A stretch of 64,000 nucleotides of DNA, taken from assembly GCA_965217865.1 (NCBI GenBank), contig CBDCJO010000002.1, positions 768,001 through 832,000 on the forward strand. The letters run 5' to 3'. The number at the start of each line of letters is the position of its first letter. The first letter of the stretch is position 1. The notes beneath the pieces are model-generated. The model was not told the DNA's origin and searched no databases. It worked only from the letters and a program-made list of their open reading frames with translations. A program made the translations under genes and the position numbers. This document shows positions 21,565 to 55,023 of this stretch, piece after piece. The stretch is from Candidatus Latescibacterota bacterium (GTDB lineage Bacteria > Latescibacterota > UBA2968 > SICM01).

Positions 21565-23364
21565 TCCTAAAATAAGCGAATAGGCTTGTTGAGCGGTGTG
21601 TTATACAAGATTTCGGAGCATTTCAGACTTGTGACTTGGTGGAGATGATGTCTGGGCTGTTTTTGTGATTGTTTCGGCATGCGATTGTCTAATTAACTGA
21701 GTTTGCGGACGTGTTTTAGCCGGGGTGGACGGACTTGTCCCTGTGATGTTACGACGACAGGTGCTGACATGGCAGTCAGGCCGGTTTGAGCCATCTGATT
21801 CTGTTCCAGGCCGGGAAGAAGTCAGTCATCCACCGGTTGTAGCCCAAGACACGATAGATGATCTGTCTTCCCCGGGTCACGATCTGGCAAGGGATCCAGA
21901 TCAGATTCTGGAGGAAGGCGCGAAACTTCATTCTCAGAAGTTGATCGCGACGCTCACGCTTTCGGATCATCAACGCGAACCAGGCTTTGAGGTTCCACGC
22001 CAGGGCGGTCATGACCATGTAAGCCCAGTTGCTCATCAGGTTGTCGACGGGCATCCGCATGGCGTTGACCCCGTTCTTGAGTTGTTCAATCACGTTTTCC
22101 TGATCGCACCGTCGATTGGCCAGCCTCACGATTTCCGCGGCCGTAAGATCTTTTCGGGTGGTAATGTAGAAGAAACAGCGCTTGTCATCGAACAGGGCGT
22201 TTTCGCCGCGTTCGACGCTCAGGTTTTTTTCGAGGATCACGAGTCGACAGGTCTTCCTGCATCGAGCAGGACGATACGAAACCCCGGCAACACGTTCACT
22301 GGCAAGTCGGATGTTTTTGAAGCCGCGCTCCCGGATGATCCGGGCTTTCACGTTCTCGCGTTTCTGTCTCTGGGAGGTTTTGACCTGGTATTTGGGTTGT
22401 CGTTCAAAGGGCTCCCAATCGCTCTGTGACAGGGATTTGGCGATCTTGACCAATCCTCTGTAAGCATCCATGCCGAAGACGAAGTCGACCTTTTCCGACC
22501 AACGATCGAAGTGCCGGGTGAGTGAGAAGCCGGTGTCTCCGCGCAGGCAGATGCGTTTGGCGAAAGGGGCGACCAGCGCGATGGCGCGATCGATCCACTT
22601 TACGGCACCGTCGTGGCTGGGCACATGGCCGGGTCGATTCACAAGAAACAACACCTCCCTGGTGTTCGCCAGAGAGACCACGAGAGGATGGTATCCCCAG
22701 ATACCGTTGTATGACAGGGCCATGCCCTGCTTGCGTTCTCCGAGGGTGGTGGCCAGGGTGCCGTCGATGTCGATGAGGGCTTCTTTGAGTTCGCCCCTGG
22801 CGCGCTTTTTCCAGATCCGGGTGCGCACCCGGTTGATGCAATCCATCAACGTCTCGATATCCGATGGTCGGATCCGGGAGACGCTGAGCGCCCAAAGCGT
22901 TCAGGAACGTGGCATCCTGCCGGCGCAGCTCAATGTCTTCAAGGCGTTGACCACCAACCAGCGCATTGTAGGCGATGTTCAGAACGTGGTCTGATTCGTG
23001 ACAGGGCAAATGCACTTTCAAAAGATGAAGATGACGGTCAATCTCTTTCACCAGCCCAACCCTGCGGACCATGTGGTGAAACGCGCCGATCCCCCCACAC
23101 GTGATCGCCTCGGCCTTCCCACTTATCTCGTAGTGGATGTTTCCCCCAGACATCATAGGCTTGACCTGACTGCACCACTGCTTCCGACGCAAACGACGGA
23201 CAATTCGTGCTTCCCTGTTCCGAAGAATCTTCCTGTATTCTCTCATCTGAAATGCCCCTTTTGATGGCCTCTTTTTGTCTTTCACACTACAACTATAGGC
23301 CTGAAAACTGGGGCATTTCAACTTTTTTCTACTAAAACCAAGAAAAATTCACGCTTGTATAGGG
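21565..23364 (-). mobile_element. IS1380 family IS, copy 1; transposase (21776-23246) broken by a 32-bp deletion at ~22867
   Basis: Near-identical to 40776-42608 and 44375-46207; flanks ACTAG / GCTAG. Confidence 0.95.
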
Positions 23365-40775: not shown

Positions 40776-42608
40776 CCCTATACAAGCGTGAATTTTTCTT
40801 GGTTTTAGTAGAAAAAAGTTGAAATGCCCCAGTTTTCAGGCCTATAGTTGTAGTATGAAAGACAAAAAGAGGCCATCAAAAAGGGGCATTTCAGATGAGA
40901 GAATACAGGAAGATTCTTCGGAACAGGGAAGCACGAATTGTCCGTCGTTTGCGTCGGAAGCAGTGGTGCAGTCAGGTCAAGCCTATGATGTCTGGGGGAA
41001 ACATCCACTACGAGATAAGTGGGAAGGCCGAGGCGATCACGTGTGGGGGGATCGGCGCGTTTCACCACATGGTCCGCAGGGTTGGGCTGGTGAAAGAGAT
41101 TGACCGTCATCTTCATCTTTTGAAAGTGCATTTGCCCTGTCACGAATCAGACCACGTTCTGAACATCGCCTACAATGCGCTGGTTGGTGGTCAACGCCTT
41201 GAAGACATTGAGCTGCGCCGGCAGGATGCCACGTTCCTGAACGCTTTGGGCGCTCAGCGTCTCCCGGATCCGACCACAGCAGGCGACTTTACACGTCGTT
41301 TCCGGCCATCGGATATCGAGACGTTGATGGATTGCATCAACCGGGTGCGCACCCGGATCTGGAAAAAGCGCGCCAGGGGCGAACTCAAAGAAGCCCTCAT
41401 CGACATCGACGGCACCCTGGCCACCACCCTCGGAGAACGCAAGCAGGGCATGGCCCTGTCATACAACGGTATCTGGGGATACCATCCTCTCGTGGTCTCT
41501 CTGGCGAACACCAGGGAGGTGTTGTTTCTTGTGAATCGACCCGGCCATGTGCCCAGCCACGACGGTGCCGTAAAGTGGATCGATCGCGCCATCGCGCTGG
41601 TCGCCCCTTTCGCCAAACGCATCTGCCTGCGCGGAGACACCGGCTTCTCACTCACCCGGCACTTCGATCGTTGGTCGGAAAAGGTCGACTTCGTCTTCGG
41701 CATGGATGCTTACAGAGGATTGGTCAAGATCGCCAAATCCCTGTCACAGAGCGATTGGGAGCCCTTTGAACGACAACCCAAATACCAGGTCAAAACCTCC
41801 CAGAGACAGAAACGCGAGAACGTGAAAGCCCGGATCATCCGGGAGCGCGGCTTCAAAAACATCCGACTTGCCAGTGAACGTGTTGCCGGGGTTTCGTATC
41901 GTCCTGCTCGATGCAGGAAGACCTGTCGACTCGTGATCCTCGAAAAAAACCTGAGCGTCGAACGCGGCGAAAACGCCCTGTTCGATGACAAGCGCTGTTT
42001 CTTCTACATTACCACCCGAAAAGATCTTACGGCCGCGGAAATCGTGAGGCTGGCCAATCGACGGTGCGATCAGGAAAACGTGATTGAACAACTCAAGAAC
42101 GGGGTCAACGCCATGCGGATGCCCGTCGACAACCTGATGAGCAACTGGGCTTACATGGTCATGACCGCCCTGGCGTGGAACCTCAAAGCCTGGTTCGCGT
42201 TGATGATCCGAAAGCGTGAGCGTCGCGATCAACTTCTGAGAATGAAGTTTCGCGCCTTCCTCCAGAATCTGATCTGGATCCCTTGCCAGATCGTGACCCG
42301 GGGAAGACAGATCATCTATCGTGTCTTGGGCTACAACCGGTGGATGACTGACTTCTTCCCGGCCTGGAACAGAATCAGATGGCTCAAACCGGCCTGACTG
42401 CCATGTCAGCACCTGTCGTCGTAACATCACAGGGACAAGTCCGTCCACCCCGGCTAAAACACGTCCGCAAACTCAGTTAATTAGACAATCGCATGCCGAA
42501 ACAATCACAAAAACAGCCCAGACATCATCTCCACCAAGTCACAAGTCTGAAATGCTCCGAAATCTTGTATAACACACCGCTCAACAAGCCTATTCGCTTA
42601 TTTTAGGA
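40776..42608 (+). mobile_element. IS1380 family IS, copy 2 (1833 bp; intact 500-aa transposase 40895-42397)
   Basis: IDIDGT, GYHPL, LRGDTGF, RCDQENVIEQLK; flanks read CCTAG / ACTAG in the orientation of copies 1 and 3. Confidence 0.95.
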
Positions 42609-43317
42609 CTAGGTAGGTCGCTACGCCGACATTTATCGTGATATCCGCTCGATTCTCGCCATCGTCGAAAGGCTGCTCCCGGATTTTACCTTTCAATCGA
42701 TCCGCGAATATCTCCGCGCCAACCCGGTTGGCGTGATCCAAGAGGACAACGAATTCGTCCCCCCCGTAGCGCGTAACGACGTCTTCTTTTCGGGCCATCT
42801 TAATCGTCCGCGCTACAATTTCTTTGAGCACGAAATCTCCGAAGATATGGCCGTGGGTGTCGTTTGTCCGCTTAAACCGGTCGACGTCGAACATGACGCA
42901 CGTGAAGGTATGACCGTGCCTTCGAGAAAGAGCGATTTTCTCCCGGATGATTTTGTCCATGTACCTGCGATTGTAAATCCCCGTTAATTCATCGACTACG
43001 GATAACGCGGTCGCGGTGTGGAGTTGATTCCGCAGGCGGTCGTAACCGGCTTTGAACCTGAGGATCGATCTGACACGGGCCGAGAATTCCCTCGGATTGA
43101 CAGGCTTGACGAGATAGTCAACCGCACCCAATTCAAATCCCTTCACCTTTTCTGAAACCTCGTTTTGGGATGAGACGAGCAAGACAGGGACTTCGATCCG
43201 ATTCTGAAGGAGCGTGCTGAGGACTTCATAGCCGTCTTCGTCGGGCAAGTGGGGGTCCAGAATCACAAGGTCGTGCTCCTTCGACTGAGTGATTTTTTTC
43301 CCCCTTTCTCCGTCCCC
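42609..43317 (-). pseudogene. 3' part of a response-regulator receiver-GGDEF diguanylate cyclase; 5' end displaced to 54345-54442, 3' end cut at IS1380
   Basis: DLVILD..PDEDG, GAVDYLVKP, DELTGIYNRR, FDVDRFK, RYGGDEF; ends at GVATY without the ADxALYxAK motif. Confidence 0.9.
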
Positions 43318-44374
43318 ATATGATCCTCTCCCCGGAGCCATTCTCTGTTCGTCAGTCATAACTTCCGCGCCGATGTCCTGGCCCTGGAGCGGGAGAGGGA
43401 GGGTTGCTTGATGAAATCATCGGTGGCGGCGCGGGGTTGTGAACGCGCAGCAGTTCAAGATATGCGCCTGGGCATGGAACCCCGAACTCCAGTGGGGGCT
43501 CGGCTGTCGCCCCAATTTGCCGTCTGTCCGTGTGGGACAGTGGCGTGAGACAGTGGCGATCGCCTCCGACCTTTCAAGTCCTTCTCCGGGAAACAGATCG
43601 CCAGGTTTTGAGGGCGCAAGGTGGCTCATGGCGATTGAGGGATGACAACTTGTGGAATTTGATTCCGTTGGGAGATTTCTGGCGTGGGTCAGTGGCGAGC
43701 TCGAGACAGCGTTGAGGGCACAGATCCGGCCCGTGTGCGACTTTCTTTCTGAATCCGGGAAAAAGGGAGGGGGACGCGACCTCCACAAAACGGGCGGCAC
43801 GGCACAGACGGCACGTGGGCGCTTGTCGCCTCCAGACGACTATCTCCGCGGCTTCTATGACCTCTTGGCGATGATCCAGGCACCCTGCTTCATGCTCCAA
43901 TACACTCACAGCGCAGTTGTTTCCGTCTCGGACACTGAGATGCAATTACTTGAATGGCTCCACGAGAAGATCCGAAACGACTTCGAGCACTTCATGCCAA
44001 AGACCCTACGCGTATCCTCCAAGGCACCTTTATGTCGTCGATAAACCTTTCGACAGAGCTCTGCTATTTCCGAACTGCTCACGACGTGTTCGACAAGGCC
44101 GGCCGCGTCGGCCCCGGTCCTAGACACATCGTGCGTTGTCCTCGATCCGGCTGTTCTGAGAGCATCATATGAAGTTTACAAAGTCGAAGCGTTTTCGCTT
44201 CAACTCAGCCAAAAATGATTGGCCTTCGTCGTTCAGCGTTTTTTCGCGCCACACTTGATAGATCAGAAGCCAGAAGCGGTCCTGCTCTCGGATCTCCATA
44301 CCCTTCAGATTGTCCGTCCGTTTTCGTATCGCATCCCGAATACTCTTAATTCGGTGGTGTTTTGCGTACTCTAG

Positions 44375-46207
44375 TCCTAAAATAAGCGAATAGGCTTGTT
44401 GAGCGGTGTGTTATACAAGATTTCGGAGCATTTCAGACTTGTGACTTGGTGGAGATGATGTCTGGGCTGTTTTTGTGATTGTTTCGGCATGCGATTGTCT
44501 AATTAACTGAGTTTGCGGACGTGTTTTAGCCGGGGTGGACGGACTTGTCCCTGTGATGTTACGACGACAGGTGCTGACATGGCAGTCAGGCCGGTTTGAG
44601 CCATCTGATTCTGTTCCAGGCCGGGAAGAAGTCAGTCATCCACCGGTTGTAGCCCAAGACACGATAGATGATCTGTCTTCCCCGGGTCACGATCTGGCAG
44701 GGGATCCAGATCAGATTCTGGAGGAAGGCGCGAAACTCCATTCTCAGAAGTTGATCGCGACGCTCACGCTTTCGGATCATCAACGCGAACCAGGCTTTGA
44801 GGTTCCACGCCAGGGCGGTCATGACCATGTAAGCCCAGTTGCTCATCAGGTTGTCGACGGGCATCCGCATGGCGTTGACCCCGTTCTTGAGTTGTTCAAT
44901 CACGTTTTCCTGATCGCACCGTCGATTGGCCAGCCTCACGATTTCCGCGGCCGTAAGATCTTTTCGGGTGGTAATGTAGAAGAAATAGCGCTTGTCATCG
45001 AACAGGGCGTTTTCGCCGCGTTCGACGCTCAGGTTCTTTTCGAGGATCACGAGTCGACAGGTCTTCCTGCATCGAGCAGGACGATACGAAACCCCGGCAA
45101 CACGTTCACTGGCAAGTCGGATGTTTTTGAAGCCGCGCTCCCGGATGATCCGGGCTTTCACGTTCTCGCGTTTCTGTCTCTGGGAGGTCTTGACCTGGTA
45201 TTTGGGTTGTCGTTCAAAGGGCTCCCAATCGCTCTGTGACAGGGATTTGGCGATCTTGACCAATCCTCTGTAAGCATCCATGCCGAAGACGAAGTCGACC
45301 TTTTCCGACCAACGATCGAAGTGCCGGGTGAGTGAGAAGCCGGTGTCTCCGCGCAGGCAGATGCGTTTGGCGAAAGGGGCGACCAGCGCGATGGCGCGAT
45401 CGATCCACTTTACGGCACCGTCGTGGCTGGGCACATGGCCGGGTCGATTCACAAGAAACAACACCTCCCTGGTGTTCGCCAGAGAGACCACGAGAGGATG
45501 GTATCCCCAGATACCGTTGTATGACAGGGCCATGCCCTGCTTGCGTTCTCCGAGAGTGGTGGCCAGGGTGCCGTCGATGTCGATGAGGGCTTCTTTGAGT
45601 TCGCCCCTGGCGCGCTTTTTCCAGATCCGGGTGCGCACCCGGTTGATGCAATCCATCAACGTCTCGATATCCGATGGCCGGAAACGACGTGTAAAGTCGC
45701 CTGCTGTGGTCGGATCCGGGAGACGCTGAGCGCCCAAAGCGTTCAGGAACGTGGCATCCTGCCGGCGCAGCTCAATGTCTTCAAGGCGTTGACCACCAAC
45801 CAGCGCATTGTAGGCGATGTTCAGAACGTGGTCTGATTCGTGATAGGGCAAATGCACTTTCAAAAGATGAAGATGACGGTCAATCTCTTTCACCAGCCCA
45901 ACCCTGCGGACCAGGTGGTGAAACGCGCCGGTCCCCCCACACGTGATCGCCTCGGCCTTCCCACTCATCTCGTAGTGGATGTTTCCCCCAGACATCATAG
46001 GCTTGACCTGACTGCACCACTGCTTCCGACGCAAACGACGGACAATTCGTGCTTCCCTGTTCCGAAGAATCTTCCTGTATTCTCTCATCTGAAATGCCCC
46101 TTTTTGATGGCCTCTTTTTGTCTTTCATACTACAACTATAGGCCTGAAAACTGGGGCATTTCAACTTTTTTCTACTAAAACCAAGAAAAATTCACGCTTG
46201 TATAGGG
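44375..46207 (-). mobile_element. IS1380 family IS, copy 3 (intact transposase 44586-46088), perfect TCTAG duplication
   Basis: TCTAG at 44370-74 and 46208-12. Confidence 0.95.
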
Positions 46208-46212
46208 TCTAG

Positions 46213-46404
46213 TGTCGTGTCCCGGAAATTCCTTCAATAATTTCTCGGATAGCGGTCTGTAAACCCTGAACGGAGCGAAGGATCTCTATGTCCCGAACTA
46301 TCAGACAGTTGGTGCGTTCTTCGCTCGCTCGCTCTCGATCAAAATGACAGCCACCGCTACGTTTTTGGAGACTTTCTTTTGTAAGGAACTTCTGGGACAC
46401 GACA
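46213..46404. mobile_element. 192-bp MITE with 22-bp TIRs and CTAG target duplication, containing a REP-like pair
   Basis: TGTCGTGTCCCGGAAATTCCTT vs revcomp TGTCGTGTCCCAGAAGTTCCTT; CTAG at 46209-12 and 46405-08. Confidence 0.85.
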
Positions 46405-47748
46405 CTAGCAGCAACACCTCTGAGAGACAGTCATCAATTTTGATGACCTCTTGGAGCTTGTTCTCCGCCATATCGAACTGCAGGTCATATTTGAGCGAGT
46501 AAAACAAGGCATGGGCGATGGCATCCGAATAAACCCTCTTAATTCCAATCTCCAGGAGCTGTTCGATGAACTCAAGAATGACTTTCTCGATTCCATCATA
46601 GCGATGCTTGCAGAACACATGTTTGTCCAGTAATGGGGCAAGATATGGATATAGCAGCGCCAAGTTGACAGCCTGCTGAACGAAGAGACGCTTAGTTCGT
46701 CTATCAAGACGTGGAGGCACCATCTTGATGGCGTAGTTCAAAACGGCATGGGTCTCCGCTCCGTGCGTTAGCTTCAGTGCCAAGTCCAGGAGCGAGCGAA
46801 CCGTTCTGAAGCGAACGGTTTCGTCTTCTGCTGGCCATTGGAAGTTTTCCAACTCTCGAATCCAGTCTTTTTCGATTGGAAGTGGCATGGGCATGATTTC
46901 AGTCTTACTTCCGTTCAGAACAAGCTCGTATTTGCGCAACTGCATCCCGAGTTCACGGATGAAATCCTCAGCTTCGTTGTGAGTTTTCGCGTAAAAGGTG
47001 TAATCATCAATATAGCGTCTAAATCGCTTGTATCCCTTCTGGAGCATCTCATGGTCAATCCTGGTCAGTATTATCTCGGAGACGACGTTGGATGTGTGCG
47101 GCCCGATCAAGAGCCCATTGGTCTGTCCATCTCGGGTACCCTGAGTGGACTTGTCCACAAGATTTCCCTCCAACAAGAGCGAGTGTTTCTTTTTAGATTT
47201 TTGACGCCCATGCAGTGCCCATGGGATCGAGTGGGTGTAGATGCTGTGAAAGCAATTCGATATGTCAGTACGAGCGACATAATGTGCGCCGGTCCTTTTG
47301 CGAATGTCCGCTTCTTCGTTCTCGGAGTGTTCCTTTCCTTTGTAATTCATCTGAAAAACACGCCGACTTGACGTTTTTCGAACAAAGATACGGCTCACCG
47401 GTGTCTCCGGTTCCGCGCAGTGCTTTTTGATTTTCGCCCAATGCCGCTTCAGAGCCAGACACTGGACAATATAGCTTTCAGGATGGGGGACCCCCATCTG
47501 ACGAGGAAGGTTGGTGTGATATAACGATTCGTAGTGAATAAAATCGTGTTTTACCTTCTTAAGGAAATCAGCCAACCTGTTCGCGTCGTTTTCCGTTGTT
47601 AGCGATATAAGGTTTTTCGTTACATGGCCTGAAAGCCCTTCGGAGGTAAAGCATGGCGGAAGATTCTCACTGAATAAGCCATGGTCAACCAAGCCCATGA
47701 ATGCCTTGTCCGCTGAAAGGCCGAGCCCCGTTGTTTGTTGCTTTACCA

Positions 47749-48592
47749 TTACACTTTGCTACGCTCCTTCCACAGGCGGACCGTGAAGCGGTGCTCCTCC
47801 TCGATCAGGTCGGGTTCGGTGCCGTTATGCGCTCGCATTCCCGGAATAATCTTGTTCCTCACCCCCATGCCGCGAGCGTCGACATATCCGTAGTCGCGCA
47901 TGATATTGACGAGTGTCTGATTGCGCGCGTAACGCATGCCCAACTTCATTCCCTCGGGCGTCACCGTGTTGGGTAATCTGCCAGGGCTCTGGACCTCTAG
48001 ACGGTCAGAGTAGATGGCCAGCATGACGTCGGTCCCCGCAATGCTGTAGTCGCGGTGGGCGAGTGCGTTCACCACGGCTTCCCGAATCACACTTTCCGGG
48101 TATTCCCAGCCGTCGATCCTCCGAGCGCCTTCGAGACGGGCCATTGGCGTCGTGTTGCGACGGACGAGGTCCCATGCCTGCTCGACGAGGCCAGCTTCGA
48201 CCATGGATCCGTCCGCGGCTCTCAGCGGAACCATGGGGCCGTACAGGTTCTCATCGGCGCGGGTCGCGTAATCGGGTTGAGTGCCCGGAAAACAGACCGC
48301 GCGAATGCCCGTTTGCGGCATGTACCTGTTCGGCGCTCTTCCGAAGAGAAGCAGGCCATCGATAGTCGCGACGAGTTGCCTGCGGACACGGTCATCAATT
48401 CAACATTTCGCAATAACGTCTCCCAGCCGCCGAGATCGCCGGGACAGTCGCGTCGAAAACTTGGGTCAGGTAATCGCGCAGACGACGAGACTCGAAAGCG
48501 TCGAAGTTGGCGCATGGCACCGGCTTCAAGCCGTACCGCAAGCGGCCCGACGCTTGGTACATTCTCTCAAGTTCCTCCCGGCTCGCTTCCCT
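47749..48592 (-). pseudogene. RecG-C/HATPase_c_4-type ATP-binding protein remnant, translationally coupled (TAATG) to the RT
   Basis: YPESVIREAVVNALAHRDYS, DRLEVQSPG, ARN..GMG; upstream part frameshifted, N-terminus missing. Confidence 0.75.
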
Positions 48593-48769
48593 AGGCGGAA
48601 GCCCTCCAGGCGGTCGATGGCGAGCATGCGGGATCAGGGTTCGTCGAAGGAGAGCATCTCCCCGTACACGGCGCCCCAGGCGCCCACTGTGGCGTTTCAC
48701 GCGCGGGTCCGGAGGCCCATGGGCGGACAGACGCGCCTGTGTGGCCACGTCGGCGAGCGGGTCGGTAGG

Positions 48770-49200
48770 CGTGTAAGATAGAAGTGGACGTTTAGGTGTT
48801 TCGGCAACCAGCGGTCGATCTTGGGCTTGTGGGTGTTCAGGTTGTCCAGGATGACGTGAATTTCCTGATCCGGGTAGTCCGCGACGAGTTCGTTCATAAA
48901 GCTTAGAAACTGCCGTCGTCTGCGTCACTTGAAGTGACCGGTTTTGACCAGACCGGTCGCCACGTTCAGGGCGGTGAACAAAGTGGTCGTATCATTCGTT
49001 TATACTCGTGGTTGAAGCCCGTCAGCGCTTTGCCATTGGGCAGTTTGAGCCATCCCTGGGCGCGTTCCAGCGCCTGGATTGCGGGCTTCTCGTCTACGCA
49101 GACAACGACGGCGTCTCGGGCGGATCCAGATACAGGCCCACGATTGGCGGCGGCCTTTGGGACGAACTCGGGGTCCGTGCTGATACAAAAGCTCCGGCGT
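48770..49200 (-). pseudogene. IS630 family transposase fragment
   Basis: ISTDPEF, VCVDEKPAIQALER, HEYKR, IHVILDNLNTHK. Confidence 0.85.
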
Positions 49201-49678
49201 CTGGCCAGAGAGTCCAGAGCGCTGCACACTGCGGTCATGGCTCCTGGATAGTCGTTTTGGCCGTGCCGTTCGTAGGCAGTACGCAGCGACTGCCTGACTT
49301 CCTCGCCGAAATCATCGGATGCCTCCTCGACCTGAAACTCAGATGGTCGCAGTTGTCCATCCAGGACGGTCCAGCCAAACCGTTGTGTGCATTCCAATAC
49401 CTTGTCGCCGAGGTCTGGATTCATTTCCAAAAGGGCAGCGATGAGTTTCCGAATCGCCTCAGTGGGTTCGTTCGCCTTCTCGATCGGGTCGCCAACGGCA
49501 TCGAGTAGTTCGCCCTTGGAAGCTCCCCCCTCTCATGGATAGACCGCTGCTGCAGATGGGAAAGCTTCTCTACTGGGAGCCCGGACGTTGCGACAAGATC
49601 CTTGATCATCGCGAATGTACATCCGTCTTTCACTGTCGGGCGTAAACATCGCCATATCTTATGAAGATCTTCCTCCAT
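49200..49678 (-). pseudogene. Hypothetical cassette-like ORF, frameshifted and truncated by IS630
   Basis: RBS GGAGGAG + ATG directly after the attC-like site; reading continues in a second frame. Confidence 0.5.
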
Positions 49679-49688
49679 TCTCTCCTCC

Positions 49689-49748
49689 ACATACCGTTCA
49701 ACATCAGATGCGGCGCATAGCGCCGTCTGCTGCATGCTGTTGTTGGGC
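49689..49748 (-). other. attC-like site
   Basis: GCCCAAC-AACAGCATGCAGCAGACGGCGC..GCGCCGCATCTGATGTTGAAC-GGTATGT (R' degenerate). Confidence 0.65.
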
Positions 49749-49911
49749 GAACTGTGATTCACTCATTCAGCCAGCCGAAAGTCCAGAACACGTATCTCTG
49801 TTTCCGTCGTGAGATTCCGTACTTCCCCTGCTTCCCCACGTCCTCTTTGCCGCGAACGCTTGGCGAGATTGCCACCGATTGGGCCGCGTATCGGCGATAC
49901 AAAAAGATCGT

Positions 49912-50090
49912 TGCGGCAAGCGCTCTGATCTGGCGCACGCTGATGGTCGCTGAAAAACGCTTCCGACGACTCAACGCACCCCATCTGCTAAAGGATGTCT
50001 ACGCACAGCACCACCGCAAAAACAAGATCACTATCGACTCGGGGAAGAAGCTGGCCGCCTGACCTTTTTACACACCTCTTGACGAGAGCT
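49912..50090 (+). pseudogene. IS256 family 3' remnant with terminal repeat
   Basis: ALIWRTLMVAEKRFRRLNAPHLL; end TTTTACACACCTCTTGAC. Confidence 0.7.
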
Positions 50091-50256
50091 CGTCTTGTCC
50101 TCCGATGTGCGAGTCACGGTTGTTTTGCTTTACACTATCACCATGATCGCATGCTCGGAGGATTTTTGCTACCAGTTTCTTAAACCGATTTTGGACAGGT
50201 GTGATTAAATACGATTTCTTACCTCACCCGCGCCGGCTTTCCGAAGCAGTCCTCCA

Positions 50257-50553
50257 TCAGGCCCCCTCCAGGACGTTCTTCAGTTTTTCCTCAAGGCCGG
50301 ATAACTCTGACTTAAGGCCATCGATGCGGACCTTCAGAGATACCACACGCGGTACACCCCCCAAATCCTGAGATCCGGTTTTCATCCCTTCGTAAATCTC
50401 TTCACCCATCTCGGCGAATCTTGCCCGAAGGCGTCTTCGGGTTGCGAGGATCTCCACCCGAACCCTAAAGGCCCGAACCAACACGCCCGCCCGTTCTTTC
50501 GCGTTCCTGAAACGCGATCTGATGTGCTCTGTCATCTCGGGCTTTGTCAGCAT
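50257..50553 (-). CDS. Small coiled-coil hypothetical protein
   Basis: RBS GGAGGG, 98 codons, heptad pattern. Confidence 0.55.
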   Translation of the reverse strand: MLTKPEMTEHIRSRFRNAKERAGVLVRAFRVRVEILATRRRLRARFAEMGEEIYEGMKTGSQDLGGVPRVVSLKVRIDGLKSELSGLEEKLKNVLEGA

Positions 50554-50928
50554 ATCGATCCCCTCCTTTTCACAACTCGATTTTTCGATCAACCCCCCTT
50601 CCCAATCGCCCTGATCAGAATTTAGGTGGGCGAAGGATCCATTTAATATACACTGCTGTCCAAGATAAATCAGAATGGGCCTTTTTTGGACAAGTAAGTG
50701 ACTGTTTTTACACAATGCCCTCTGGCAGACTGAAATCCAGGTTGCACTGGCCAAAGATGCTGTCCAAAAGCTGGATGGTCCGAAAGATCGGGCCTTTCAT
50801 TGCACAACACATCCCGAAAAGCTGGGATTCAGGCGATTCGAAGAGGACCTGGTGGTTCGGGCACGGTCTTTGATCGCCTATCTGATCCAAATTCTGTCCA
50901 AAGAAAAAACCGATTTTGGACAAGTATG

Positions 50929-50956
50929 ATATGACATAATGGATATTAGGTCAATA
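50929..50956. other. dif-like (XerC/D) 28-bp site
   Basis: ATATGACATAA-TGGATA-TTAGGTCAATA, 11-6-11 layout. Confidence 0.4.
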
Positions 50957-51044
50957 GCGAAACGACGGCGGGTGGGAAAAGCTGGACTGATCTTGGAAAG
51001 CGGGGACGGGGGGACGATGTCCCGCCGGGTACGGAAGGGGGCTG

Positions 51045-51473
51045 CTACTTCTCCTGCCGGGCGACGAGTTGCGCCCACATCGCGCGCTGGTGGCTCCAGT
51101 GCGGGACACGAGTGATGGGACGGACGTCTTTCTCTCGGATGGGATCGCGTCCCATTAGTGTGTGAGGCAGGAAGAGCAACGCCTCCTGAATGTCGGGCGC
51201 GAGGTTGAGCAGGTTCATGATCTGCGTGATCCGGGCCCGCGTCACGTAGCCGAGGCGCGCCAGGTCCGCGTAGTCCCGCACTTCGCCGCGCCGGACCAGA
51301 CCGTCGAAACGGATGGCCAGAGCCATGAGCCTCGAGATGCGCGGCACGTTCCCCGGTTCGACGCTTGGGTCCGGGTGCTTGCCGTTGCTGCGGTCGTTGG
51401 CGGGCTGGAAGGTGAAGGAGACTTCCAGCGGACTCGGCCTCGTGGTCGCGGCGTCGTATGCGAGGTCTCTCAT
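51045..51473 (-). CDS. Small HTH-like protein of the type found downstream of DUF2924-LSR genes
   Basis: RLMALAIRFDGLVRRGEVRDYADLARLGYVTRARITQIMNLLNLAPDIQEALL; ATGA overlap. Confidence 0.75.
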   Translation of the reverse strand: MRDLAYDAATTRPSPLEVSFTFQPANDRSNGKHPDPSVEPGNVPRISRLMALAIRFDGLVRRGEVRDYADLARLGYVTRARITQIMNLLNLAPDIQEALLFLPHTLMGRDPIREKDVRPITRVPHWSHQRAMWAQLVARQEK

Positions 51474-51868
51474 GCCGTGTCCTCCGCGCCGGTGACGGCC
51501 GCCTCGGTGCAGAGGGCCTTGATGCCCAGGGAGCGAAAAGCCACGGTCACCGTGCCGTCACGCCCGTCGTAGCCGATCCGCTCAACCAGTACCCGGATGA
51601 TGCGCGACTGCTCACGGGGCGACAGCGACTCCCAGATCGGATCGAAGTGGGCCAGGGCCTGGGACAACTCGCCTTCGCCGACGGCCTCCCGTTCCAGCGC
51701 AATGACCTCCTCCCGAATGGCGGTTACGAGTTGTTCCGAACTGCGGATTCGATCCTGCAGGTCGGCTAGCTGATCGGTCGTGGACCGGCCGTTTCCGGGC
51801 TGGAACGTGAAGGACACTTCCAGGGGTCCGGGTCCGGCCCGGGTCGCATCGGATGCGCGACCGCTCAT
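51470..51868 (-). CDS. Chimeric ORF: N-terminus of the HTH protein fused to a second copy of the LSR C-terminus
   Basis: PLEVSFTFQP shared with the 51045 ORF; ALEREAV..FDP.W..L.PREQ..ER.GYDGRDGTVTV shared with the LSR. Confidence 0.7.
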   Translation of the reverse strand: MSGRASDATRAGPGPLEVSFTFQPGNGRSTTDQLADLQDRIRSSEQLVTAIREEVIALEREAVGEGELSQALAHFDPIWESLSPREQSRIIRVLVERIGYDGRDGTVTVAFRSLGIKALCTEAAVTGAEDTA

Positions 51869-53280
51869 CGCATGACCTCCTGGCCGTCGAGACCCGCCTT
51901 CCGGCACAGCGCCTCGATGCCGGGTGGGCGAAAGGTGACGGTCACCGTGCCGTCCCGTCCGTCGTAGCCGACCCGCTCGATGAGCAGCCGGAGTCTCCGG
52001 GCCTGCTCCCGCGGGGCCAGCGCCGTCCAGACCGGGTCGAAGACCTCCAGGGCCCGGGCCAGGTCGCTTTCATCCACGGCTTCCCGCTCAAGAGCGGGAG
52101 CCTCTTCCCGGAGAGCGGTCAGCCGCTGTTCCCGCGCTTTGGCCACCGTGGCCGCCACGGCCTGTTCGTTCATCCCGGTGCCGCGGACGTGCTCCACCAC
52201 CGCGGTTTCGATCTGGTGGGCGTTGAGGGACCTGCCCGGACACGACGACCGGCCCCGCTGCCGGGCATTCCGGCAGACGTAATACCGGTAGCGCTTTCCG
52301 TTCCTGCCGGTACAGACGTGCGCCATGCCCGTCCCGCACGGTGTGCAGGACAGCAACCCCTTGAGCAACGCTTCGTATTTGTTGCGCACCTCCCTGCCTC
52401 CGGTGCGGGCGTTCGTGCGGAGCGCGTCCTGGACCCGCTGCCACAGGCCGGCGTCAACCAGGGCGTCGTGTTCCCCCTCATAGAGGGCGCCCTTGTACCG
52501 GACCTTCCCCGCATAGATGACGTTGGTCAGCAGCCGGTGCAGGCTGTTCTTCGTGAAGGGCTTGCCGCCTCGCTCGATGCCTTTCCTGGTCGTCCAGCGT
52601 TTCGTGAGCCATCCCCGGCGGTCGATCTCCCGGACGACCGGGATCAAGGCCTTGTGGTCCAGGTAGAGGTGATGGATCGCCCGGACCCGCGCCGCTTCCT
52701 CCGCGTTGACGATCAGCCGCCCGCCCCCAGGGGCCACGTCATACCCCAGCACCGGCAGACCCCCGACCCACTTTCCCTTGCGCCGCGCCGCCGACATCTT
52801 GTCCCGGGTGCGCTCGGAGATGATCTCCCGCTCGAACTGGGCGAATGACAGCAGGATGTTCAAGGTGAGCCGCCCCATCGAGCTGGTCGTGTTGAACTGC
52901 TGCGTGACAGAGACGAAGCTCACCCCGTGCCGGTCGAACCGCTCCATGATGCGGGCGAAGTCCAGCAGCGACCGGCTCAGCCGGTCCACCTTGTAGACCA
53001 CCACGCAGTCGATCGCGCCGGCCTCGATGCCGGTCAGGAGCCGTTCGAGTGCGGGCCGCTCCATGTTCCCGCCGGTGAAGCCGCCGTCGTCGTAGCGTCC
53101 GGCAAGGCAGACCCAGCCCTCCTGTTGCCGGCTGGCGATGCAGGCCTCGGCCGATTCCCGTTGAGCGTCCAGGCTGTTGAAGGCCTGCTCGAGTCCCTCA
53201 TCGGTGGACTTGCGCGTGTAGATGGCGCAGCGGAGGGTCCCGGTTCCATTGGAGGACGATGCCGGGATGGTTCCGCTCAT
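51865..53280 (-). CDS. Large serine recombinase (resolvase + recombinase + zinc ribbon)
   Basis: YTRKST catalytic Ser, DDGGFTGGNMERPAL, VYKVDRLSR, FAQFERE, CTPC..YYVC..C. Confidence 0.95.
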   Translation of the reverse strand: MSGTIPASSSNGTGTLRCAIYTRKSTDEGLEQAFNSLDAQRESAEACIASRQQEGWVCLAGRYDDGGFTGGNMERPALERLLTGIEAGAIDCVVVYKVDRLSRSLLDFARIMERFDRHGVSFVSVTQQFNTTSSMGRLTLNILLSFAQFEREIISERTRDKMSAARRKGKWVGGLPVLGYDVAPGGGRLIVNAEEAARVRAIHHLYLDHKALIPVVREIDRRGWLTKRWTTRKGIERGGKPFTKNSLHRLLTNVIYAGKVRYKGALYEGEHDALVDAGLWQRVQDALRTNARTGGREVRNKYEALLKGLLSCTPCGTGMAHVCTGRNGKRYRYYVCRNARQRGRSSCPGRSLNAHQIETAVVEHVRGTGMNEQAVAATVAKAREQRLTALREEAPALEREAVDESDLARALEVFDPVWTALAPREQARRLRLLIERVGYDGRDGTVTVTFRPPGIEALCRKAGLDGQEVMR

Positions 53281-53813
53281 GCGTTCCCCTTTCCGGATCC
53301 ACGGCTGTGGTTCCGCCTCTTTCCCCGGGTAAGCCCGAAGAAGGCAAAGCCGTTCCATTGGCTGCCGGTGACCTGCCGGGCGATGGCGGAGAGAGACCGG
53401 TAGCGGCGTTCCTCGAACGCGAAGCCGTCATCGAGCACCTGCACCACCAGGTCGCGGCCCTGGAAGGTGCGTACCAGAAGCGTCCCCGGCAGGGGCAGCC
53501 GCCGGTCCCGCGAGGGCGACAGGCGACCGGCCGTCGTCCGCGCCTGCTCCGCCGCCGTGCCCGGCCTGCTCCGGTCCCGCGGGGCGCGCAGTCTCAGGTC
53601 CGCATCGTTGGCCAGTTCCCCGGCGCGCCGCCGGGCCCGCTCCGAGAGGCCGCCCTCGGCCAGGGCCTGCAGACGCCAGGAGATCCGCTTGCGCAGGAAC
53701 GCCTTGTGGTACGAGCGGGTTTCCTCCCCGAAGACCTCGAGGTACTTCTCCCGCAGTTCACCCACCGTCATCCGGGAGAGCCCCTGAATCTGTTGAACCG
53801 TGCCGGCTTCCAT
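53277..53813 (-). CDS. DUF2924 domain protein
   Basis: ELREKY.EVFG..FLRKRISWRLQ..EGGL, PGTLLVR.FQG, YRSLSAIARQVTGSQWNGFAFFGL; RBS GGAGG. Confidence 0.9.
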   Translation of the reverse strand: MEAGTVQQIQGLSRMTVGELREKYLEVFGEETRSYHKAFLRKRISWRLQALAEGGLSERARRRAGELANDADLRLRAPRDRSRPGTAAEQARTTAGRLSPSRDRRLPLPGTLLVRTFQGRDLVVQVLDDGFAFEERRYRSLSAIARQVTGSQWNGFAFFGLTRGKRRNHSRGSGKGNA

Positions 53814-54264
53814 ACGGAATCCTCCCTTCCCTTGGGGATATAAAGCCCTTAACCTTTTCAATATGAACGACTTGTGTGGCCGGCATGTCAAGTCGTTTCT
53901 GCCCAATGTCCCAGATTCTTCGGACGGCTACTGGCGGCTGTTCCGGAAACGCGGGAAGCCCTGCGCCAGGAGCGAGGCGAGGGAGAGTCTCGTCGAGCGA
54001 GTCAGGAAGGGGGTCGAGGTCAGGCTCCAAGGAGGATGCTTGCCGGAGGAATTTCCGAAACGTCGAAACCGGCCGTCCGGATGCAATCGGGCTGTTAAAC
54101 AAGGCCGACTGAAAAAACAGAGAATCGGAGAATCCGGAGGAGATATCTCTGCTCAAGCGGGCGCAACCCCACGGTTGTGCTTGCAATCCCGGGGGGAGCG
54201 CTTCGAAACAGAGAATTTGCAGAGAGGGGGGAAGATGGCATAAGCGTTTGTGAATACGGCAGAA

Positions 54265-54299
54265 ACGACAAAACCCCGAAGGGGTTGCCCCACGGGGTC
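54265..54299 (-). terminator. Terminator-like hairpin just inside the element's right junction
   Basis: Minus strand GACCCCG..CGGGGTTTTGTCGTTT, in the direction of the interrupted host gene. Confidence 0.5.
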
Positions 54300-54344
54300 T
54301 GGCGTTAACGGACGACCGCCTAAGTTGGCGGATGGGAATATGGC

Positions 54345-54442
54345 TCCCCGGCCGTCACGACCTCCATTCCATCGGTTTGAAGGGTCGCTTGAATTGAGGA
54401 CTGAGTATGTTCATCCTGGTCGATTACGACCACCCTTGCCAT
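54345..54442 (-). pseudogene. 5' part (32 codons) of the receiver-GGDEF gene
   Basis: RBS GGAGG; MARVVVIDQDEHTQSSIQATLQTDGMEVVTAG = receiver beta1-alpha1-beta2. Confidence 0.85.
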
Positions 54443-54609
54443 TGGGCCCCTCCCGTGCTCCTGGAGTTTTGACCGTTTCTTCTTTTGATAATTCAACAAA
54501 CTTCGTTTGGATCCTGGCTTTACGGATTCCAAGAATCAGAAGACCAGACTCTCCGCTCATGCCGTTTAAGTTGACCAGAGGATCGCTCCGTCAGGGTGTC
54601 CTTTCAATG

Positions 54610-55023
54610 TCACTTCCTCTTCTTGGGTGCGGTTTTTTTCAAGCCCGTTCCCTGTTCGGTGGATGTGGATGAAGCCTTTTCGGGGAGGTCATAATTTGCT
54701 TCGCTCAAAGATAGGCTTCCAGAAAGCATGGTGCGTATCTGCTGATCGGTCGCCTTAAGCCCATCCAGTTCTTTTGAAAGTTCCTCAACTTTGTGTGAGT
54801 TGGCCCGAAGCCTTGCATTTTCGACCTTGAGCGTTTCCATCGATGCGCTCCAGGTCTTTAGATGCCAGACGGCCAAGCCGCCAAACACTGTCATGATCAT
54901 GCCGACACCCACAAACACGACCATGATTTTCAGGAGGAGCGAACTAATCTTAAGTTCATGTGTCCGGGAGCCATCGTCCGGCACGATTAGAATGGAATAG
55001 GTCTTTACTCGTTTTTGAAGCAT
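54610..55023 (-). CDS. Membrane-anchored coiled-coil protein resembling the N-terminus of M23 peptidases
   Basis: YSILIVPDD..T..LKIS, TM helix, coiled coil; no M23 domain. Confidence 0.55.
   Translation of the reverse strand: MLQKRVKTYSILIVPDDGSRTHELKISSLLLKIMVVFVGVGMIMTVFGGLAVWHLKTWSASMETLKVENARLRANSHKVEELSKELDGLKATDQQIRTMLSGSLSLSEANYDLPEKASSTSTEQGTGLKKTAPKKRK

Follow-up and report, generated by a model that had tools for sequence, protein, structure and literature searches.

A DUF2924-linked serine recombinase island in a diguanylate cyclase gene, probably a stray insertion by a family that targets tRNA 3′ ends

Why does an element of 11,032 bp, carrying a DUF2924 gene and a large serine recombinase gene, lie inside a diguanylate cyclase gene of a Candidatus Latescibacterota bacterium? 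The locus lies in a stretch of 64,000 nucleotides (the window; contig CBDCJO010000002.1, positions 768,001 to 832,000 of the forward strand), and positions given without a contig refer to this window. A preliminary description, made from the sequence alone, had proposed that excision restores the cyclase and possibly acts as a c-di-GMP switch. Our analysis supports a real element with exact attachment (att) sites, and leads us to drop the switch. We assign the element to a family of DUF2924 and large-serine-recombinase islands that insert at tRNA 3′ ends; the cyclase copy is most likely a recent stray insertion that inactivated the gene (probability about 0.82). The features at the junctions are the following.

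54345..54442, minus strand: first 32 codons of the receiver-GGDEF gene (5′ piece), aligning with the orthologues of genomes G001 and G002
54345..54346, minus strand: crossover dinucleotide GA at the left junction (attL), its place within a 5-bp word judged from other targets
43313..43314, minus strand: crossover dinucleotide GA at the right junction (attR)
42609..43312, minus strand: middle piece of the cyclase gene (rest of the receiver, most of GGDEF), up to CTAG; the final 34 codons are found from G000:C2:1653407 downwards
40776..42607, plus strand: IS1380 copy outside the element, where the cyclase gene is broken for the second time

The two flanking fragments had been taken as parts of one receiver-GGDEF gene, and this proved correct. 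As described, the word TCCCC (GGGGA on the strand of the gene) stands at both junctions, at 43313-17 and 54345-49. Excision of 11,032 bp in silico gives a single open frame of 270 codons, which aligns with the intact G001 orthologue (residues 1-266, 59.7% identity over 268 columns) with two gap positions, neither of them at the element junction. The two genes upstream of the cyclase are syntenic in G001 and G002. When both element ends were compared by BLAST with other copies in the genome, the matches ended at 43313 and 54349.

The in-frame joint also occurs as a natural allele. We compared contigs from four runs of four studies (X1, X3, X8 and X9); run X2 was uninformative because its contig ends at 43317. 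The search for an empty site suggested in the preliminary description succeeded in three of the four runs (X3, X8 and X9, three studies), where 43312 is joined to 54345 and exactly the 11,032 bp are skipped. In X8, one contig of 6,963 bp spans both the empty site and the position of the second break, with 8 differences in 693 bp; the X9 allele has 15 differences from the window, and the X3 allele differs within the 5-bp word, leaving only GGA in common. One empty-site strain matches the window almost exactly. Since these alleles carry substitutions of their own, and since in X3 and X8 the cyclase continues past 42609 into its displaced 3′ end and is thus whole, the empty alleles look ancestral rather than like products of excision. 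X1 is filled: one contig is identical to the window across the right junction with 33 letters on the element side, and the left-junction contig has fewer than 31 letters there. X8 and X9 also lack 114 bp upstream of the cyclase start (54495-54610), likely the promoter region.

In the window the cyclase gene is broken a second time, about 700 bp downstream of the element junction. Its middle piece covers positions 2-132 of the 161-position GGDEF model and terminates at a CTAG adjoining IS1380. This insertion sequence had been thought to have removed the 3′ end; instead, the missing last 34 codons start at a CTAG at G000:C2:1653407-20 (G000 being the genome of the window), 843 kb away, where they adjoin another multi-copy insertion sequence. 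Excision of the element would thus restore the frame and still leave the gene incomplete.

To place the insertion in its family, the ends and the integration module are needed.

54010..54344, minus strand: conserved 'A' end of the element; starts with GCCA, which completes the CCA end of the tRNA at the normal target
53277..53813, minus strand: DUF2924 protein of 178 amino acids with a helical N-terminal and a RAMA-like C-terminal part (PF11149, 151 bits)
51865..53280, minus strand: large serine recombinase of 471 amino acids, catalytic motif at 53220, with an in-frame loss of 59 coiled-coil residues at 52125/52126
51470..51907, minus strand: partial duplicate with the second half of the coiled coil and the recombinase C-terminus
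51045..51473, minus strand: small conserved gene after the recombinase, no Pfam match
43315..43800, minus strand: 'B' end of the element; the last 50 bp are common to 38 ends, with GGTT 25 nt before the core

The core itself is shorter than the GGGGA first proposed. An uninterrupted cas1 gene and an intact copy of the small gene have only GA in common with the element end, so the conserved part is GA (43313-14 and 54345-46), a 2-bp crossover core as in other large serine recombinases. In relatives the core is GA, CT or GC, and ten of their right ends have GA, CT, GC or CG exactly 25 nt after GGTT, followed by NCCA in eight and not in two. The core letters vary with the target. An 8-bp inverted repeat had been presented as a feature of attP; its arm ATGGCTCC occurs in one of 38 B-type ends, that of the window copy, while ATGGTTCC is found in 33 of the 38, and the consensus of 30 sites is most symmetric in a 6-bp inverted repeat with GA at its centre. 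The terminator-like hairpin reported just inside the junction does recur: the A end, of which about 260-340 bp are common to 38 copies, holds two hairpins (54316-54331 and 54264-54306), and the second is conserved in related ends.

The normal target of the family is a tRNA 3′ end. The A end follows tRNA-Asn in G013, G036, G039, G041 and G056, and tRNA-Met or -Val in G007, G013 and G126. Of 80 metagenome loci, 20 show a tRNA gene in the 3 kb upstream of DUF2924, and in every case it is tRNA-Asn(GTT); where at least 1 kb of upstream sequence is present, tRNA-Asn precedes DUF2924 in 15 of 48 loci and no other tRNA occurs in that position. The recombinase follows DUF2924 in 58 of 61 loci with enough flank. 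We located 42 A ends 0.3-1.4 kb upstream of DUF2924. Twenty-nine of them follow tRNA-Asn 3′ sequence and 13 another sequence, which in several cases is the right end of an element. Throughout, L034 and L055, identical in sequence, were counted once, and matches at query 390-480, beyond the conserved A end, were ignored. A search for related loci found one locus in genome contigs, four distant records in plasmids and one in phages. A second DUF2924-recombinase subfamily, 47% identical, follows tmRNA with a tandem copy; in G000 it lies at C2:1831061 and 1881720, with a full coiled coil and the tandem copy 50 kb on, and it is found at tmRNA in G027 too.

The cyclase might be thought a tRNA-like pseudo-site. 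This idea found no support: the tRNA-likeness of the site is matched or exceeded by 18% of 997,563 GA sites, and its left arm is not tRNA-like. Two features of the ends may bear on recognition. GGTT is separated from the core by 24-25 nt in right ends versus 19 nt in the tRNA T arm, a difference close to, and perhaps matching, the 5-bp shift between attP and attB described for the zinc-domain motif in PMC3783163. In addition, TTAAC words occur about 36 nt and 246 nt inside the A end (54309 and 54099), in related ends (L071-L150), and in the anticodon arm of tRNA-Asn about 32-37 nt before the core; they are candidate binding sites for DUF2924.

How far the family has spread is best seen in its own genome. 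Profile searches gave 58 matches, and after removal of three weak ones (C2:2635143, 3205851 and 3570867) 55 end sites remained: 30 B-A junctions, 6 b-A junctions with a variant right end b, 9 ends before a 175-bp mini unit, 8 before other DNA, and two host-A junctions, namely tRNA-Asn at C1:620045 and the cyclase. Thirty-six sites (B-A and b-A) are therefore head-to-tail junctions of the predicted attP type, and the circle junction that the preliminary description had predicted is present 30 times in the chromosome. The candidate attB/attP pair proposed there thus stands as far as the recombinase-type insertion, the circle junction and the empty site in other strains are concerned; the cyclase as a meaningful target is not supported. 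By position, 30 sites lie in C2:1-630 kb, 16 in 3.17-3.78 Mb, 4 in 2.43-2.51 Mb, 2 on C1, 2 in the window and 1 at 1.40 Mb, with none in 4.0-5.7 Mb. C2 begins with sequence that overlaps the end of C1; this would put the largest cluster right after tRNA-Asn, but the overlap recurs at 3.29 Mb. The A-end pattern has 37 matches in G000 versus at most 7 in any of the other 167 genomes. Whichever enzyme made them, the distinct targets in this one genome are tRNA-Asn, the cyclase, cas1, the element's own small gene and two or three unnamed flanks. The right ends in cas1 (Pfam Cas1) form three junctions, probably from one event, at C2:252265, 377106 and 3312907, each with the right end fused to the 3′ third of the gene; the uninterrupted cas1, with its empty site at C2:607799, adjoins a CRISPR array.

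We propose the following course of events. The recombinase would cut at the 2 bp before the tRNA discriminator base, and the incoming A end would rebuild the CCA end and, with it, a new target. Repeated rounds would then stack islands head to tail (accretion). Occasionally, junctions of such a stack may recombine with almost any GA site; the cyclase would have been struck recently in this manner, and an IS-linked rearrangement would have followed or preceded the insertion. Base-exact attB, attP, attL and attR are hereby available for a very widespread recombinase module (6,486 DUF2924 clusters), and since tRNA-Asn is present in most bacteria, integration and the role of DUF2924 are directly testable.

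The recombinase of these islands is unusual in one respect. It has the Resolvase, Recombinase and zinc-ribbon domains with the catalytic serine motif, and an intact homologue is predicted to fold like solved integrases. In the model of the intact homologue P0126, helices 369-415 and 423-455 form a hairpin after the zinc ribbon, which we aligned by sequence to the coiled coil of the Listeria innocua integrase; the deletion removes approximately residues 383-441, that is, 59 residues in the window copy. The three full copies, the only full recombinase genes of the window subfamily in the genome, measure 457 residues from the first strand versus 515-517 in close homologues. The spacing from zinc ribbon to C-terminal motif was measurable in 109 of 120 homologues (not in 11): it is 156-162 residues in 103, 81 in one and 103 in five, all of which share 90% identity or more with the window copy. 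Clustered at 90%, the shortened form falls into five clusters. In G000 all nine copies that span the region (three full genes and six remnants) are shortened and none is intact, while two half-coiled-coil fragments show that an intact version once existed. P0222, a homologue 68% identical, carries another and larger coiled-coil deletion.

An engineered deletion of the coiled coil in the L. innocua integrase (residues 342-416) yields mutants that are promiscuous, have lost directionality and integrate poorly between molecules (PMC3783163, PMC5499577). The region lost here is the same helical hairpin after the zinc ribbon; the loss differs in being natural and in taking 59 of about 87 hairpin residues, so that a stub is left. 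One could imagine that a natural in-frame loss of the directionality arm turned a tRNA-specific integrase into a promiscuous enzyme, independent of any directionality factor, that joins any two of its sites as well as almost any GA, and both built and still shuffles defence-rich islands of more than 1 Mb, with the cyclase and cas1 as collateral hits. We regard this extended account as possible and rather unlikely. If it were true, nature would have produced its own version of the engineered mutants, and integrases would have a path towards transposon-like enzymes. The shortened recombinase, the dozens of junctions and the matched filled and empty alleles together form a natural test of the coiled-coil model of directionality. 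On present sequence data, a shortened enzyme that still works, if sloppily, and one that is in decay are about equally likely. The same even chance applies to the narrower claim that the shortened enzyme made the cyclase insertion, for which speak the dS of 0.04-0.05 among the three full copies, the near-identity of one empty-site strain to the window, and the lack of an intact subfamily copy in the genome.

Several observations weigh against our account. The first concern the enzyme: shortened copies have a ratio of nonsynonymous to synonymous rates (dN/dS) of 0.27-0.44 (dS 0.04-0.05) versus 0.09-0.17 in intact pairs, and they carry four changes at columns invariant in 57 homologues, which suggests that they may be decaying. 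The most serious rival builds on this and holds that the arrays and the cyclase insertion were made by an intact recombinase, since lost or merely passed through, with the shortened copies as dead passengers. Only a little short of an even bet in our estimate, it fits the raised dN/dS and the altered invariant zinc-domain columns, the fact that most recombinase copies are fragments, the half-coiled-coil remnants of an earlier intact version, and the poor intermolecular integration of the published mutants (PMC5499577). Against this rival, dN/dS stays under 1 (Fisher p 0.001 and 0.013, two pairs tested) and is 0.22-0.28 in the catalytic domain. The absence of intact genes among the nine region-spanning copies and the spread of the shortened form over five 90% clusters likewise speak against mere passengers. 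Also against our own account, relatives have short stacks as well, and of their ten right ends two seem to be off-target, so that the coiled-coil deletion is unnecessary for either.

Further adverse points concern the counts. G000 is rated 9.3% contaminated, and a 6-kb segment is found both where the contigs join and at 3.29 Mb, so that assembly may have duplicated some sites; the A-end pattern was drawn mainly from G000 and favours it; and the ratio of two host-A to eight B- or b-other junctions is not explained by simple insertion. One-sided deletions from chromosomal junctions could account for this excess of right ends facing non-element DNA. It is accordingly conceivable, and in our view improbable, that many of the 55 sites are duplicates spread by insertion sequences or products of mixed-strain assembly rather than separate recombination events. 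About 40 IS1380 matches and many other repeats are present, two cas1 junctions are identical over 400 bp and some flanks exceed 98% identity for 1-2 kb, all in line with duplication, as is the contamination rating. Most A ends, on the other hand, diverge after the common 260-340 bp and show 5-15% differences within that stretch, 35 of 47 pairs of neighbouring sites lie on the same strand, and independent short-read contigs support the cyclase junctions.

The regulated switch fares much worse. The skin, SPbeta and fdxN elements are serine recombinase elements within a gene whose excision restores the frame, with fixed targets and developmental timing. By analogy, excision here would switch on c-di-GMP synthesis, and the exact restoration of the frame at the shared core, the catalytic motifs of the recombinase and the presence of XisF among its best NCBIfam matches (135 bits, cut-off 375) agree with this. 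Any recombinase with a 2-bp core restores its target on excision, however, and unlike those systems the target is incidental here: the gene has two breaks, G001 and runs of three studies have the site empty, and the family normally uses tRNA. No empty joint was found in the contigs of X1, where the filled right junction is bridged; contigs lose rare variants, so rare excision in X1 would escape detection, a last point against us. We consider a switch very improbable. A crossover 16 bp further in, within another shared word of 8 bp, which would give a symmetric attP and a frameshifted gene and which drew on the presence of that word at both junctions of the window copy, is refuted by the other copies that end at 43313, the private arm and the exact length skipped in the natural empty site.

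How does this family compare with known systems? Tandem serine-recombinase islands are already known; new here are the 55 end sites, the stray ends and the naturally shortened recombinase. The ssrA islands of Dehalococcoides, for which accretion was proposed (DsiB; McMurdie et al. 2011, PMC3146451), resemble ours in having a CcrB-like serine recombinase, in standing in tandem at the 3′ end of a structural RNA gene and in including many units that lack an integration module. According to the same source, they use ssrA with a 20-bp direct repeat, have dsiB overlapping attL, encode a second, small recombinase (DsiA) as well as ParB and Mom, and stay within 100 kb. None of these module features was found here, although the second DUF2924 subfamily does sit at tmRNA. 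The present islands instead use tRNA-Asn with a 2-bp core and NCCA, place the recombinase about 1 kb inside the end together with DUF2924 and the small gene, and have sites scattered in both orientations across about 1.3 Mb. Staphylococcal cassette chromosome (SCC) elements, moved by CcrA, CcrB or CcrC, form tandem composite islands at rlmH. Our recombinase has its best NCBIfam match in CcrB, the islands form tandem composites, and relaxed site pairing is common to both (attP x attP activity of CcrA/B is cited in PMC3783163); the differences are a single recombinase, a tRNA target and no rlmH, and the Ccr family scores of 154, 115 and 110 bits fall well below the cut-offs of 900, 900 and 700.

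Contrary to the statement that no att sites were defined for DUF2924-linked recombinases, they have been mapped in phage WO (PMC9203015), where DUF2924 adjoins a large serine recombinase (PMC10299305, PMC11376236). There, too, insertion into a protein-coding gene occurs. The likeness is one of gene arrangement: WO elements are prophages that insert into a chelatase gene or between genes, and the accessible parts of these papers describe neither tRNA targets nor stacks. Multi-targeting recombinases such as Cp36 (Durrant et al., PMC10083194) resemble ours in relaxed targets with a common dinucleotide core; most of that clade (63%) carries DUF4368, absent here, where one target class dominates. 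The terms DUF2924, PF11149, diguanylate and tRNA-Asn do not occur in the supplement text of PMC10083194, whose full recombinase table possibly lies outside it. Our literature search, which left most subscription papers outside, returned DUF2924 only in three Wolbachia papers and gave no account of a tRNA-Asn family, its att sites or a natural coiled-coil deletion; PMC12884075 and PMC13626063 provide background.

DUF2924 is likely an accessory DNA-binding protein of the recombination reaction. It has been described as partly RAMA (PMC11342252), in the WO protein as in ours, and weak RAMA matches were obtained for 17 of 76 aligned members (best E 3.7e-4). The model (mean predicted local distance difference test score, pLDDT, 72.5; predicted template modelling score, pTM, 0.35) found no Foldseek match at E<=0.001; RAMA-type entries (MPND-DNA, CcrM) came up weakly, and an atlas search gave no match outside PF11149.

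The remaining features of the element and its family are these.

50257..50754, minus strand: open reading frame (ORF) of unknown function, common to the copy at C2:3.488 Mb
47749..48321, minus strand: cargo fragment with a RecG-C-terminal/HATPase_c_4 domain
46301..47749, minus strand: cargo, Drt4-like anti-phage reverse transcriptase (PADLOC Drt4 460 bits; NCBIfam 407 bits, cut-off 450)
44376..46207, minus strand: IS1380 copy inside the element
G000:C2:115407, 295665, 342116, 457438, 525797, 626388, 2468689, 3528948 and 3719029: 175-bp mini units

Pfam has no family for the small gene after the recombinase, which we take to be helix-turn-helix-like, for 50257-50754, for 43652-44044 or for the gene struck at C2:115582. 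The C-terminus of the Drt4-like protein is replaced, the frame running into a 200-bp inverted-repeat element (46209-46408); a second Drt4-like copy lies at C2:450831. Since 44370-46405 is missing from contigs of X1 and X3, there are alleles that lack the inserted elements. To gauge defence content, we scanned the 87 longest low-copy ORFs of 220 candidates from about 420 kb of site regions; 37 of the 87 matched PADLOC at E<=1e-20, a count taken without a control region and including some generic matches. These comprise type I, II and III restriction-modification, Avs2, QatA, AriAB and Cas3, among others.

The nine mini units are nearly identical, have the core at both sides and hold no gene; they are possibly the smallest mobile unit of the family. 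At C2:574650, a right end is followed by GCCA and three short repeats resembling the 3′ end of tRNA-Asn, possibly the far end of the tRNA-Asn stack. IS1380 copies in the window (40776-42607, 44376-46207 and 21566-23364) lie at CTAG sites, and this family twice adjoins the end of a 200-bp inverted-repeat element.

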